A DNA stretch of 64,000 bases from an uncultured Bacilli bacterium. GTDB taxonomy: Bacteria > Bacillota_I > Bacilli_A > RF39 > UBA660. The notes below the pieces were generated by a model. That model saw only the letters and a program-made list of their open reading frames with translations. It was not told where the DNA came from and made no database searches. Location: positions 10,274 through 74,273 of the forward strand of contig CANRKU010000002.1 in assembly GCA_947631295.1 (NCBI GenBank), written 5' to 3'. The translations under genes and the position numbers were made by a program. This document shows positions 9,318-12,755 of this stretch, piece by piece. Every line of letters begins with the position of its first letter. Position 1 is the first letter of the stretch.

Positions 9318-12300
9318 ATGCAAGTAATGAATGGTGTATTAACAGATGTTAAAGATAAAGATATTATGAATGGTACTTTTGTATTTCCTGAAGGAGTTAC
9401 CAGTATAGGAGCTTGTGCTTTTTATGATTGTATATCCTTAACTTCCATTATTATACCCGAAAGTATTACTAGTATAGGAGAATTTGCTTTTACTGATTGT
9501 AGCTCCTTAACTTCCGTTACTATACCTGAAAGTATCACCAATATAGGAAAATCTGTTTTTTCCCACTGCAGCTCCTTAACTTCCATTACTATACCTGAAA
9601 GTATCACCAGTATAGGAGAAGCTACTTTTAATGATTGTAGCTCTTTAACTTCCATTACTATACCCGAAGGAGTGACCAGTATAGGAGATGATGCTTTTTA
9701 CGGTTGTAGCTCCTTAAACTCAATTACACTACCTGAAAGTATCACCAGTATAGGAGACTCTACTTTTTGGGATTGTAGCTCCTTAACTTCCATTACGATA
9801 CCCGAAGGAGTTACTAGTATAGAATATTCTGCTTTTTGGAATTGTGGCTCCTTAACTTCAATTACACTACCTGAAAGTATCACCAATATAGAAAGATCTG
9901 CTTTTACTGGTTGTAGCTCCCTAACTTCCATTACTATACCCGAAGGAGTTACCAGTATAGAAGATTATGCTTTTTGGAATTGTAGCTCCTTAACTTCAAT
10001 TACACTACCTGAAAGTATCACCAATATAGAAAGATCTGCTTTTGCTAGTTGTAGATCTTTAACCTCAATTAATCTACCCGAAGGAGTTACTAGCATAGGA
10101 GATTGTGCTTTTACTGATTGTAAATCCTTAACTTCCATTACTATACCTGAAGGTGTTACCAGTATAGGAGAAAATGCTTTTACTGATTGTACCTTCTTAA
10201 CTTCCATTACCATACCTAAAAGTGTTACCAGTATAGGAAAATTTGCTTTTAAGAAGTGTTCAATAAAAGAACTTCATACACCTTGGGGTAGTTGTGAAAT
10301 AAAGGATAATTCTACCGATGATATAATTCAAAATTATTTATATTTATATGCAAATTCTATTTTGAAAGAAAAATATTCATCTCTTGATGATTTCTTATCT
10401 AGTAATGATTTTATTTATGAATTTTTTGATGGTGCTATTATTTATCATACCAACGCTATCATAAAATTCAAAAACTTATTTTACAAAATGAGAAAAGACT
10501 TTGATATTCCAAACGGACTATTTAATAGAATGAGCGTAGAAATGACTGAAAAATTTGATTTGAAAACATGGAATCATATTAAAAATATCTTTGATTGGCG
10601 TGATTCTCCTGAAATGACAGAAGCATTTAATGAAATGATAGCAGTTTTTGGATTATTTGAAGAGGATAACGAAAAAGAAAAAAGAATTTTAGATTTTATC
10701 GATCTTTTTCAGAAAAAATCTTATATCATTTATCTCATAACGAATGATGATTATTCATATCTTGTTGCATACCTCTATCCTAATCTTAAACTTTATTTCG
10801 AAAAAAAAGAAACAACAGGTATGTTATTAAAAGAAACAACAGATATTCCTACTGAATTTCAACCTTATTTAAAAGTAAGACTATCAGAATCAGAAATTAA
10901 GAAAATTAAAAAATTAACTGGTACTTATGGAAAACAAATCAATGAGTTTTTAAAATATTATTATCAGGTTAATATTTTCAAAGATTATCAATTAAAAAAA
11001 GAATATTTAGATCAAGAAGATATTAAAAAACGTATATTTTTTAAAACTGATTGGTATGGTCATCTTACATATCATAGTCTTCATCGTATATTTGATGGAT
11101 GTGAATTAAAATTTAATCCTGATTTTTATCATTTCTTGATGGATAATTTAGAATTTATTTTACATGATGAAAAACTACAGTCTGAAGTAAAAAATATCCA
11201 GAAGAATTTTGAAAAAATGAAAAAACATTATCTCTTTCAATCAGGAACTACAGAAATTACTTTAAAACAAGCTCTTGATTATTTAGAAAATATTACTTTT
11301 GATTATCATGATAGAAATTATGAATTAGCATTAGATGTTAAAAGAGCTGGGGTAAACGATGAAGAAGCTTTTCTTTATTATCAAAAAGTATTTGAAGAAA
11401 ATGATGTTAGAAAATTAAGTTCTTTAATAAAAAGAAGCCATATTTATGAAATTGATGGCTATACGATTCAAGCAGAATTATTAAGAAAAGACGATAGTTT
11501 TGGTATGTTAGTAGGAGAAGTTAACTATACCGATTGTTGTCAAGCATTTGGTGATTTAGGTCATAATTGTATGGCCCATGCAGTAAGTAGTGATGATGGA
11601 GGAATCTTTGTTACCAGATTATTAAAAGATGGAGAATGGATTTTACTAACAGAGTCATGGGATTGGCAGAATAATAATATTTATTGTCATGATAATATCG
11701 AAGGAACACCTTATTTCAAAAAAGATGAAAGATTAAAAAAAGCAGTAGCAGAGGTTTATCGTTTAGATGGAGAAGCTATTATTGAAAAAAGTAAAGAAGA
11801 GGTATTAAAATATATAAAAACAAGAAGAAAAGTAATTGAGAAATCATCATTACCTAATAAAGAAAAAGAATTGGAATTATTAAGAGAGTTAGAACAAAGA
11901 GAAGTAATTCGCTTAGTAACAGTAGGATCTGGAAATGATGATTTAGGACTTTCTCGTTATTTTCAAAGATCCATTCAAGTAAATCAAGAACAGATTATCG
12001 CCTCACAAAGATTTACCTTAGAAAACTTTCAACCAGTTAATTATAATTCAAATCAACCATATTTTGATGAGACTCATGGTTCTTATACTGATAGCGGTAT
12101 AAAACAGTATATGATAGCAGGAAGTATAGAAGAATTATGTTTGGGGAAATTAGAACCATTAGTACCTATTTATCGAGATGAAAGAAGAGTCATCTTAGAA
12201 GAGAAAGAAAATATTAGAAATTATACGGTAAATAAAATCAAGAATATGGAAAAAGAAATTTATCCAAAAGAGATGTATCAATATCAAACATCTCATCAAG

Positions 12301-12755
12301 ATGATTTTAGTGATTCTAATATTTATTTAGGAGAAGATTGGTACTTAATTTATGAGGAAAAAGAAGATAATGGTATTTATATATCTGATTTAGTGAAAAC
12401 AACTCCAACATTAGGAGATGAAATAAAGGATCAAAATCAAGAAATTATGAAAGTAATCTATGATTTAGTAAGAAAATATGATTATATCGAAGCAGATTTA
12501 AAAGAGGATACCTCCTATTTATTATATTTAATCAATAAAAAGTTAGGATATTTTGAACAAATAGGAGAAGATATTAGTTATCCATTCCAAAATAGAAATC
12601 AACAAAAAGAAATAACAGAACAAGAACAAGAAGATATATTAAAACAAATGAAAGAAATTAAGAAGAAAAAAAATCCAGAATTAATCATGCATCATATTAC
12701 CTTTCAAAAAGGAAAACTTTTTCAATTAGAAGAAGAAGCTATCAAACATCGTTAA
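9318..12755 (+). CDS. BspA/TpLRR-type leucine-rich repeat protein with a large C-terminal domain of unknown function
   Basis: The track start GTG 9309 lies inside the AGGAGGTG RBS; the likely start is ATG 9318. About 12 tandem 23-aa repeats (consensus ITIPESITSIGexAFxdCSSLTS). No N-terminal hydrophobic signal. An ~830-aa C-terminal region with the Cys/His cluster YTDCCQAFGDLGHNCMAHA..YCHDN. Confidence 0.7.
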   Translation: MQVMNGVLTDVKDKDIMNGTFVFPEGVTSIGACAFYDCISLTSIIIPESITSIGEFAFTDCSSLTSVTIPESITNIGKSVFSHCSSLTSITIPESITSIGEATFNDCSSLTSITIPEGVTSIGDDAFYGCSSLNSITLPESITSIGDSTFWDCSSLTSITIPEGVTSIEYSAFWNCGSLTSITLPESITNIERSAFTGCSSLTSITIPEGVTSIEDYAFWNCSSLTSITLPESITNIERSAFASCRSLTSINLPEGVTSIGDCAFTDCKSLTSITIPEGVTSIGENAFTDCTFLTSITIPKSVTSIGKFAFKKCSIKELHTPWGSCEIKDNSTDDIIQNYLYLYANSILKEKYSSLDDFLSSNDFIYEFFDGAIIYHTNAIIKFKNLFYKMRKDFDIPNGLFNRMSVEMTEKFDLKTWNHIKNIFDWRDSPEMTEAFNEMIAVFGLFEEDNEKEKRILDFIDLFQKKSYIIYLITNDDYSYLVAYLYPNLKLYFEKKETTGMLLKETTDIPTEFQPYLKVRLSESEIKKIKKLTGTYGKQINEFLKYYYQVNIFKDYQLKKEYLDQEDIKKRIFFKTDWYGHLTYHSLHRIFDGCELKFNPDFYHFLMDNLEFILHDEKLQSEVKNIQKNFEKMKKHYLFQSGTTEITLKQALDYLENITFDYHDRNYELALDVKRAGVNDEEAFLYYQKVFEENDVRKLSSLIKRSHIYEIDGYTIQAELLRKDDSFGMLVGEVNYTDCCQAFGDLGHNCMAHAVSSDDGGIFVTRLLKDGEWILLTESWDWQNNNIYCHDNIEGTPYFKKDERLKKAVAEVYRLDGEAIIEKSKEEVLKYIKTRRKVIEKSSLPNKEKELELLRELEQREVIRLVTVGSGNDDLGLSRYFQRSIQVNQEQIIASQRFTLENFQPVNYNSNQPYFDETHGSYTDSGIKQYMIAGSIEELCLGKLEPLVPIYRDERRVILEEKENIRNYTVNKIKNMEKEIYPKEMYQYQTSHQDDFSDSNIYLGEDWYLIYEEKEDNGIYISDLVKTTPTLGDEIKDQNQEIMKVIYDLVRKYDYIEADLKEDTSYLLYLINKKLGYFEQIGEDISYPFQNRNQQKEITEQEQEDILKQMKEIKKKKNPELIMHHITFQKGKLFQLEEEAIKHR
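9380..10260 (+). repeat. tandem 69-bp coding repeats (LRR units), ~12-13 copies
   Basis: Highly similar repeated DNA units (cttaacttccattactatacc[ct]gaa[ag]g..accagtatagga..). They also generate three spurious antisense ORFs in the track. Confidence 0.8.

Follow-up and report, generated by a model that had tools for sequence, protein, structure and literature searches.

In a 64,000-nucleotide stretch of DNA from an uncultured Bacilli bacterium (the whole stretch analyzed, here called the window), we characterized a gene whose product joins an N-terminal LRR array to helical regions followed by two domains predicted with high confidence, from structural modeling, to adopt GNAT-like folds (acyl-CoA N-acyltransferase superfamily). 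We tentatively favor a cytoplasmic location and a transferase-like function directed by the LRRs. Under this proposal, the LRR solenoid would act as an interchangeable target-recognition module and GNAT-like domain 1 as the working core, which would transfer an acyl or aminoacyl group to the LRR-held target, or otherwise bind or modify that target. Feature coordinates are collected in Table 1.

Table 1. Positions of the LRR-GNAT gene, its parts, and adjacent features within the window.
Feature	Coordinates	Strand	Basis or remark
Terminator-like hairpin	7499-7518	+	Pattern scan
Best promoter-like site	7537-7565	+	Pattern scan, 11/12 positions plus extended TG; consensus match only
RBS AGGAGGT	9305..9311	+	7 nt before ATG 9318, GGAGG core 9306-9310; read from sequence
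CDS, 1145 aa	9318..12755	+	LRR, then helical regions, then two predicted GNAT-like folds; ORF list, homologs
N-terminal cap, aa 1-23, MQVMNGVLTDVKDKDIMNGTFVF	9318..9386	+	Conserved, acidic, not a signal peptide
13 BspA/TpLRR units of 23 aa (69 bp)	9387..10283	+	TRF, Pfam LRR_5, register and identity matrix
Three antisense ORFs	9422-9655, 9698-9931, 9965-10213	-	77-82 aa, repetitive translations (MEVKELQS..ILVILSGIV)
Predominantly helical segment with short beta hairpins, aa 323-704	10284..11429	+	AF2/DSSP, alignments
GNAT-like domain 1 (predicted), aa 705-914	11430..12059	+	Most conserved part of the family; Cys/His/acidic cluster
CCQ-x8-C-x2-H motif, aa 740-754	11535..11579	+	Domain 1, alpha1-alpha2 loop and alpha2
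C-H-D-N-I-E, aa 790-795	11685..11702	+	Domain 1, strand beta4
GNAT-like domain 2 (predicted), aa 944-1134	12147..12719	+	Invariant R956, GEDW 1005-1008, E1042
HExxH (HEITH) ORF, 287 aa	12791..13654	+	Adjacent; possibly co-transcribed

The gene and its LRR array

The ORF is intact and real, and its product is identical to the database protein P0001. Homologs begin at an equivalent methionine (M[KEQ][IV]xN), and full-length homologs align over 97-100% of the C-terminal query. The preceding gene stops with TAA at 9265-9267, as previously reported. GTG 9309 was rejected as a start codon, since it overlaps the RBS and the homologs align to ATG 9318. A hairpin and a promoter-like site upstream (Table 1) define the start of a possible transcription unit, 7594..>14000, that would take in the LRR-GNAT gene; the pattern scan found no terminator-like sites across 7594-14000.

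The original prediction of this ORF, its RBS, BspA-type repeats, and three antisense ORFs was borne out by the ORF list, TRF, and Pfam. The LRR_5 profile (PF13306) matched in three stretches with E=1.3e-112 and 371.4 bits, against a cutoff of 27.7. The predicted 12 to 13 tandem 23-aa repeats resolved into 13 units in the protein register (aa 24-322), comprising 12 regular units and a last one that forms a degenerate cap. TRF described the array at 9390-10251 with a period of 69 (12.4 copies, score 861, 76% matches) and also with a period of 138 (6.2 copies, score 994, 81% matches); the higher match rate at 138 indicates a two-unit super-repeat, in which PEGVTSI alternates with PESITxI. The 69-bp periodicity claimed earlier holds, but near-identity of the units does not: any two of the 12 regular units are 68-94% identical in DNA, the mean over all 13 is 75%, and the longest exact repeat in the array is 59 bp. 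Variation within the repeats peaks at unit positions 9, 10, 13, 14, and 16 (2.0-2.45 bits), with scaffold codons nearly fixed, and the variable residues occupy the usual solvent-exposed positions of an LRR repeat.

The antisense ORFs lie in register with the repeat units and are most plausibly explained by their periodicity; comparable 100-aa antisense ORFs occur within the LRR regions of nine other loci. The HupY/LrrG adhesin profile (NCBIfam NF047961) scored 170.6 bits, below its cutoff of 1250, with the match confined to the LRR region.

Fold and conserved residues of the C-terminal region

The C-terminal 831 aa had no match in Pfam, NCBIfam, PHROGs, PADLOC, or PDB sequences, in agreement with the earlier view that this region belongs to no recognizable sequence family. 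A Pfam scan of separate C-terminal pieces at E<=10 returned no GNAT or acetyltransferase family, and the superfamily-core profile (A3) found no match among PDB sequences; a word-indexed profile search with the same core recovered only four proteins. Among 1.84 billion representatives, the superfamily of this module amounted to 352 clusters at 50% identity. Pfam and PHROGs scans of nine distant relatives (six by Pfam, five by PHROGs, two by both) gave only a sub-threshold match to CARD_2.

The fold assignment comes from AF2 models, with pLDDT values of 90.9 (C-terminus) and 90.3 (core only). The top fold matches of the C-terminus were all GNATs and included no cysteine peptidase, and the order of elements follows the GNAT fold (b1-a1-a2-b2-b3-b4-a3-b5-a4-b6); the resemblance is at fold level only, with 5-12% identity. 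Preceding the two domains, the helical region was modeled with pLDDT ~85-95 (model m35142297c524, secondary structure from DSSP), and family alignments show conserved blocks there: YLYLYANSILK, FGLFExD, GTYGKxIN, and HRIFDGC. An origin of the two GNAT-like halves by internal duplication was rejected (hhalign probability 2.4%).

GNAT-like domain 1 is the best-conserved segment among old paralogs and carries the cluster of Cys, His, and acidic residues, of which YTDCCQAFGDLGHNCMAHA spans aa 737-755 and YCHDN aa 789-793. Across 207 superfamily cores, the CCQ motif retains C741 in 205, Q742 in 204, and H754 in 203, and C751 is kept in 171, with Ser in 30 (Ser, Ala, or Asp together in 36). Within C-H-D-N-I-E, C790 and D792 are each present in 206 cores, N793 in 197, and E795 in all 207; H791 is His in only 96, Phe in 94, and non-His (Phe, Leu, Ile, Tyr) in 111. 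The nearly invariant residues of domain 1 (D726, C741, Q742, H754, S780, W783, C790, D792, N793, and E795) would sit in the alpha1-alpha2 loop, on alpha2 and beta3, and at the end of beta4, elements that form the acceptor groove and catalytic site in GNAT enzymes, and the topology suggests that they cluster in three dimensions. Residues C741, C751, H754, and C790 might then form a metal (Zn or Fe) site or supply a Cys nucleophile and His base.

The original prediction had proposed an enzymatic or toxin-like C-terminus, with the His of YCHDN in a catalytic Cys-His arrangement. The predicted fold is enzyme-like, but it is GNAT-like and not that of a papain-like or toxin-type Cys-His protease, and the variability of H791 speaks against a catalytic dyad that includes it. 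There are conserved Cys residues and one conserved His (H754), and C751 sits at a helix N-terminus followed by three strands, superficially as in papain; a Cys-His protease or toxin domain is nevertheless very improbable, given the absence of cysteine peptidases among the top fold matches and the replacement of H791 (mostly by Phe or Leu) and of C751. The best peptidase family, Peptidase_C97 (E=0.011), was below cutoff and aligned to a different helical segment. On fold and H791 conservation, the papain-like reading of the Cys cluster was rejected. Assignment to a known structural family without a dyad had been set as evidence against the initial idea; this evidence came out only by half, as a known fold, GNAT, was assigned but a conserved Cys/His/acidic cluster persists within it.

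GNAT motif A (Q/R-x-x-G-x-G/A), the CoA pyrophosphate loop after beta4, is absent from both domains. Domain 1 has DNIEGTPYFKK at this position and domain 2 an acidic PxLxDExxxQxxE, with no conserved Gly pair. An acyl-CoA bound in the conventional way may therefore not be the donor, and acyl-ACP or aminoacyl-tRNA, as in LasI, FeeM, or Fem type enzymes, would be alternatives. The missing CoA motif and the acidic loop of domain 2 also mean that one or both domains could be non-catalytic. An extension of this view, in which the GNAT-like domains are pseudoenzymes forming a non-catalytic scaffold or ligand-binding adaptor, agrees with the lack of any GNAT match at sequence level and of detectable homology between the halves. 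We regard it as unlikely: the polar Cys, His, Ser, Asp, Asn, and Glu residues are nearly invariant (at least 197 of 207) despite ~27-40% overall identity, and they sit on elements that form GNAT active sites.

Family evolution and cellular location

The family was found only in MAGs of uncultured gut Bacilli with small genomes, from human and rabbit hosts. Tandem arrays reach up to eight genes per contig, as on one 37.7-kb contig with eight paralogs whose MAG holds a ninth elsewhere, and a gene for a 1911-aa NPCBM/F5_F8C protein is interspersed among the arrays. The loci are chromosomal and lie beside housekeeping genes; in two genomes with core genes ~93% identical, the sites they occupy are accessory and non-orthologous. 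RNase HII is their sole recurrent neighbor. Metagenomes scanned with an exact 5' pattern and, separately, with family patterns gave no match.

The lengths of the N-terminal (LRR) regions of homologs form a 23-aa ladder, and P0002-P0004 are 100% identical to P0001 from ~aa 700 to the end and 30-80% identical before it. These comparisons show a family that diversifies as whole LRR units are gained or lost and as genes duplicate in tandem, so that the anticipated change in repeat copy number did take place over evolution. They further show that, in the P0001 lineage, recombination keeps the C-terminal 450 aa identical across differing N-termini. Other relatives in the superfamily lack LRRs altogether: P0164, P0290, and P0336 (1600-1700 aa), for example, share the helical and two GNAT-like parts of the module with the same invariant residues, but their N-termini are ~1000 aa of helical "PxLFLxxxAPxELKxxYY" repeats. 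At the three LRR-less loci examined, a ProA/ALDH-like gene follows (in one case precedes), whereas none is found beside genes of the LRR branch.

The HExxH ORF downstream had been suggested as a partner, and this was rejected. It has no family, PADLOC (E<=0.1), or PDB match, no homolog lies beside any of ~40 family members at 18 other loci, and a comparison of 21 related loci likewise found none.

To place the protein in the cell, we relied on hydropathy. Its N-terminus is acidic rather than hydrophobic, and the cap consensus of ~60 homologs, M[KE]IVNxVLxKVxxxDIxxGTxxIP, is without a hydrophobic core. The maximum KD19 is 1.51, inside the LRR and short of a TM segment, compared with 2.6 for a neighboring secreted protein. 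The hydropathy-based scan detected no signal peptide, lipobox, TM segment, or sorting motif in the protein or in ~70 homologs, which upholds the missing signal peptide first noted for this protein and extends it to the whole family. The absence of export signals is the sole basis on which we consider a cytoplasmic location most likely. The accompanying premise that BspA-like proteins are normally secreted was too strong; in Ca. Mycoplasma girerdii a signal peptide is present in only 5 of 26, though 23 of 26 have a C-terminal TM anchor, and host-associated Mollicutes carry expanded, variable BspA-like families that mostly lack signal peptides (PMC4206474).

Those Mollicutes families would also suit a different reading, that of a BspA-like surface adhesin or antigen-variation protein reaching the surface by non-classical export, whose C-terminus would help in anchoring or assembly instead of catalyzing a reaction. 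Surface proteins are the best-known members of the LRR_5/BspA family, and the combination of hypervariable LRR positions, genes in tandem, and mosaic paralogs is reminiscent of antigenic variation. The gene's neighbors, encoding DUF4874/DUF4832 (with a signal peptide), DUF6020, GT2, and GtrA proteins, have secreted or surface-glycan functions; these and the arrays interspersed with NPCBM/F5_F8C proteins would also fit a surface role. We nonetheless think this unlikely. Unlike the largely TM-anchored Ca. M. girerdii proteins, the family carries no anchor or export signal, and its C-terminus is predicted to fold as two GNAT-like domains. Proteins of this fold normally draw on cofactors of the cytosol. 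Two further points count against an adhesin: the 22 Cys of the protein, including one per LRR unit, and the occurrence of the same C-terminal module on LRR-less helical N-termini in housekeeping contexts.

The lack of an export signal, the hypervariable LRR surface, the arrays of diverged paralogs, and the accessory sites would suit an intracellular immune-type sensor-effector (e.g., anti-phage), in which the LRR recognizes an invader protein and the GNAT-like module is the effector. This too appears unlikely. PADLOC gave no match for the C-terminus at E<=0.1, an NTPase or oligomerization module is absent, known defense genes do not recur nearby, and LRR-less relatives sit in core-genome contexts. 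A viral contig scan and tblastn against phage and plasmid collections turned up no relatives, so the gene is apparently not phage- or plasmid-borne.

Relation to known systems and significance

The LRR-guided, transferase-like protein that we favor shares with the BspA/TpLRR proteins of Tannerella, Ca. Mycoplasma girerdii, and Trichomonas the 23-aa repeat type, with its strong LRR_5 profile match, as well as variable copy number, an expanded multigene family, host association, and many members without signal peptides. It differs in the family-wide absence of a TM anchor or signal and in the joining of the LRR to an 830-aa, intracellular-type module with two GNAT-like folds, a combination for which we found no description among BspA-like proteins in the literature searched. 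Searches on LRR with GNAT, LRR with defense, and BspA with RF39 likewise yielded nothing relevant. Compared with members of the GNAT superfamily such as the two-domain Legionella VipF, clavulanate ORF14, and FemA/FemX, the module stands apart in its low identity (5-12%), its lack of a match to any Pfam GNAT model, the absence of the CoA loop from both domains, and a CCQ...C..H...C.DN.E signature of its own in domain 1.

In architecture, an analogy can be drawn with IpaH/SspH effectors, which also combine an N-terminal LRR for targets with a conserved C-terminal domain bearing an invariant Cys, and form multigene families with swapped LRRs. The likeness is one of architecture only: the LRR subtype is another, and the fold is GNAT-like alpha/beta as against the all-helical NEL. 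The Pfam scan gave no NEL match, the conserved Cys residues lie in the alpha/beta GNAT-like domain, and the loci examined showed no T3SS context. It is conceivable, if unlikely, that these proteins represent an unrecognized intracellular recognition-effector class, in which diversifying LRRs guide a Cys/His, GNAT-fold enzyme lacking the CoA loop to invader or host-cell proteins. Were this true, the arrays would supply a repertoire, immune-like or of effectors, whose catalytic domain has no characterized relative.

Without a relative in Pfam, NCBIfam, PHROGs, or PDB, the C-terminal module defines an unannotated superfamily whose predicted fold and conserved residues are enzyme-like. If catalytic, it would be a Cys-bearing branch of the GNAT fold without the usual CoA-binding loop, and would point to LRR-guided protein modification in commensals; if not, it still offers a clean case of concerted, modular evolution in an LRR gene family. 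LRR-fused arrays fill a noticeable share of some contigs in these uncultured, small-genome gut Bacilli, and so large a commitment suggests that they serve an important interaction in bacteria not yet grown.

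Gene start, leucine-rich repeats and export

The window protein (1,145 aa) is encoded by a genuine gene, with GGAGG 7 nt 5′ of its ATG. A GTG at 9309 was considered as the start and rejected, as it overlaps the ribosome-binding site and homologs start at the Met equivalent to ATG 9318. The three antisense ORFs of the original prediction are present as repetitive mirror images of the repeats; comparable ORFs lie within LRR regions of nine other loci, and we regard all three as artefacts.

Tandem Repeats Finder resolved the repeat region at a 69-bp period (12.4 copies, 76% matches) and better at 138 bp (6.2 copies, 81% matches). 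In protein register, residues 24–322 form 13 units of 23 aa, in which 12 regular units alternate PEGVTSI and PESITxI and the thirteenth is a degenerate cap; the Pfam match is LRR_5 (BspA type; E = 1.3e-112). Describing the units as near-identical overstated their similarity: pairwise DNA identity is 68–94%, and no exact repeat exceeds 59 bp. Differences cluster at unit positions 9, 10, 13, 14, and 16 (2.0–2.45 bits) on a scaffold of nearly fixed codons, as is typical when an LRR binding surface is diversifying. Copy-number change, also anticipated, is supported on an evolutionary scale, since LRR-region lengths of homologs fall on a 23-aa ladder (85, 108, 132, 153, 177, 200, 222 ... 384 aa), suggesting gain and loss of whole units.

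A hydropathy scan found neither a hydrophobic N-terminus nor a transmembrane segment, with a maximum KD19 of 1.51 vs 2.6 in the neighbouring secreted DUF4874/DUF4832 protein. About 60 homologs share the acidic N-terminus M[KE]IVNxVLxKVxxxDIxxGTxxIP, so the lack of a signal peptide, correctly noted at the outset, characterises the family and does not stem from a misplaced start codon. A BspA-like surface protein, as the LRR type might suggest, would have to be exported by a non-classical route, which we consider unlikely.

Coordinates of features in the window and in related loci
Location	Coordinates	Feature
Window	472-5565	1,697-aa protein with Peptidase_M60 (enhancin-like), fn3, and F5/8 type C domains
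Window	7594-19154	Block (~11.6 kb) absent from L001: secreted DUF4874/DUF4832 protein, LRR gene, HExxH ORF, DUF6020, GT2, GtrA, Big_14, M29 peptidase
Window	9265-9267	Stop of preceding gene
Window	9318-12755	LRR gene, ATG to TAA
Window	9390-10251	Tandem repeat array (both periods)
Window	12791-13654	ORF with HEITH
Window	25593-26814	138-aa holin superfamily IV type protein (Phage_holin_4_2), overlapping lgt start
Window	44432-52297	2,621-aa ORF
Window	50-52 kb	Local GC rise to 0.40 vs ~0.28 elsewhere
Window	52928-53034	S10-Clostridia ribosomal-protein leader (Rfam RF03136; 36.6 bits, barely over gathering score), 5′ of apparent ribosomal protein genes
L019	12925-14220	ProA/ALDH-like protein
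L021	13015-14103	ProA/ALDH-like protein
L016	9148-9993	ProA/ALDH-like protein

The C-terminal module and its conserved site

For the C-terminal 831 aa, searches of Pfam, NCBIfam, PHROGs, PADLOC, and PDB sequences gave no match, including when the region was split into pieces and scanned at E ≤ 10. Searching the PDB by Foldseek with an AlphaFold2 model (62-sequence alignment; pLDDT 90.9, pTM 0.68) returned GNAT acetyltransferases only, the best being Naa50 (E = 1.4e-3), at target TM-scores of 0.5–0.6. From this model, we conclude that a helical region is followed by two GNAT-like domains. Higher-Z whole-chain matches probably belong to domain 2, an assignment made indirectly because the fold comparison does not give aligned ranges. 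Sequence homology between the two halves was not detected by hhalign (probability 2.4%). The Q/RxxGxG/A CoA loop, canonical in GNATs, is missing from both domains; DNIEGTPYFKK takes its place in domain 1 and an acidic PxLxDE loop in domain 2. A pseudoenzyme scaffold might look like this, though we judge it improbable.

The Cys/His cluster is located in domain 1, with CCQ (residues 740–742) on the α1–α2 loop, C751 and H754 on α2, and C790-H-D-N-I-E795 on β4. Across 207 superfamily cores, W783 and E795 are invariant (207 each), followed by S780, C790, and D792 (206 each), C741 (205), Q742 (204), H754 (203), and N793 (197); C751 is kept in 171, with Ser in 30, and H791 in 96, with Phe in 94. GNATs build their acceptor groove and their catalytic site from the α1–α2 loop and the end of β4, and for this reason we favour a functional site in the modelled domain, one that would either bind a metal or use a Cys nucleophile together with a base. 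A conserved Cys/His/acidic site is present, but it differs from the YCHDN dyad first proposed, whose His is the variable H791, and does not lie in a protease fold; a Cys-His protease or toxin seems very improbable.

The downstream HExxH ORF, put forward as a partner, is not conserved beside the family: no homolog was found near any member in 21 loci, and searches found no family or PDB relative. It may be co-transcribed with the LRR gene, since no terminator-like site was found between 7594 and 14000.

Distribution and evolution of the family

Searching with the C-terminus found 73 proteins, nearly all LRR_5 plus the module. Among all 1.84 billion representatives there were 352 matches at E ≤ 1e-3, many of them 1,000–1,800-aa proteins with only the module in common, some carrying ~1,000 aa of helical repeats in place of LRRs. 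In the distant relatives P0164 and P0225, the N-terminal ~1,000 aa consists of repeated helical F(K/P)xxxPxLFLxxxAPxELKxxYYxxxL motifs, which match no Pfam or PHROG family. Every genome match was a MAG of uncultured gut Bacilli, recovered from rabbit or Hadza human samples. Family loci are chromosomal, with rpsF-ssb-rpsR, RNase HII, UvrA, and RecA as neighbours, and the viral contigs, phages, and plasmids searched held no relatives. RNase HII was the sole recurrent non-family neighbour (7 loci).

Each of the three LRR-less loci examined (L019, L021, and L016) has an adjacent 281–431-aa ProA/ALDH-like protein. Its gene lies directly 3′ of the LRR-less gene in L019/L020 and L021, start overlapping stop (partial Aldedh matches, E = 1e-8 and 3e-7), and a weakly related gene sits upstream in L016. 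This protein is possibly a true partner in the LRR-less branch; none was found near LRR-branch genes.

One 37.7-kb contig carries eight paralogs, with a ninth in the same MAG. This tandem array (loci L008/L009/L011 on CATLHA010000011.1, plus L017/L018) is broken by a 1,911–1,913-aa NPCBM/F5_F8C glycan-binding protein and adjoins RNase HII. Its paralogs are old (40–65% identical) and most conserved in GNAT-like domain 1. Three close paralogs of the window protein (P0002–P0004), all on one other 95-kb NCBI contig, are 100% identical to it from residue ~700 to the C-terminus and 30–80% identical over the first ~600–700 aa, a sharp mosaic that suggests recent recombination, gene conversion, or cassette-like recombination.

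In L001, a related MAG with core genes ~93% identical to those of the window, the block containing the LRR gene is missing between an SDR gene and uvrB, and a family member lies instead at a site that is empty in the window, flanked by lgt and a 557-aa gene. Given these different sites, family genes behave as accessory genes. The Phage_holin_4_2-lgt pair is kept in L001. Elsewhere in the window, the Peptidase_M60 protein suggests a mucin- or glycan-degrading lifestyle.

Proposed role

Neither the LRR type nor the GNAT fold is new; our literature search found no description of the LRR-module fusion, of a CoA-loop-less, Cys-bearing GNAT-like core, or of this unannotated superfamily. An accessory gene pairing a variable LRR with a conserved module could encode an immune-type sensor-effector, which we think doubtful, though it is compatible with our best reading. 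That reading, held tentatively, is of a cytoplasmic protein whose variable LRR would hold out a target to the conserved GNAT-fold module, which may carry out acyl or aminoacyl transfer, possibly from a non-CoA donor, or a related binding function.
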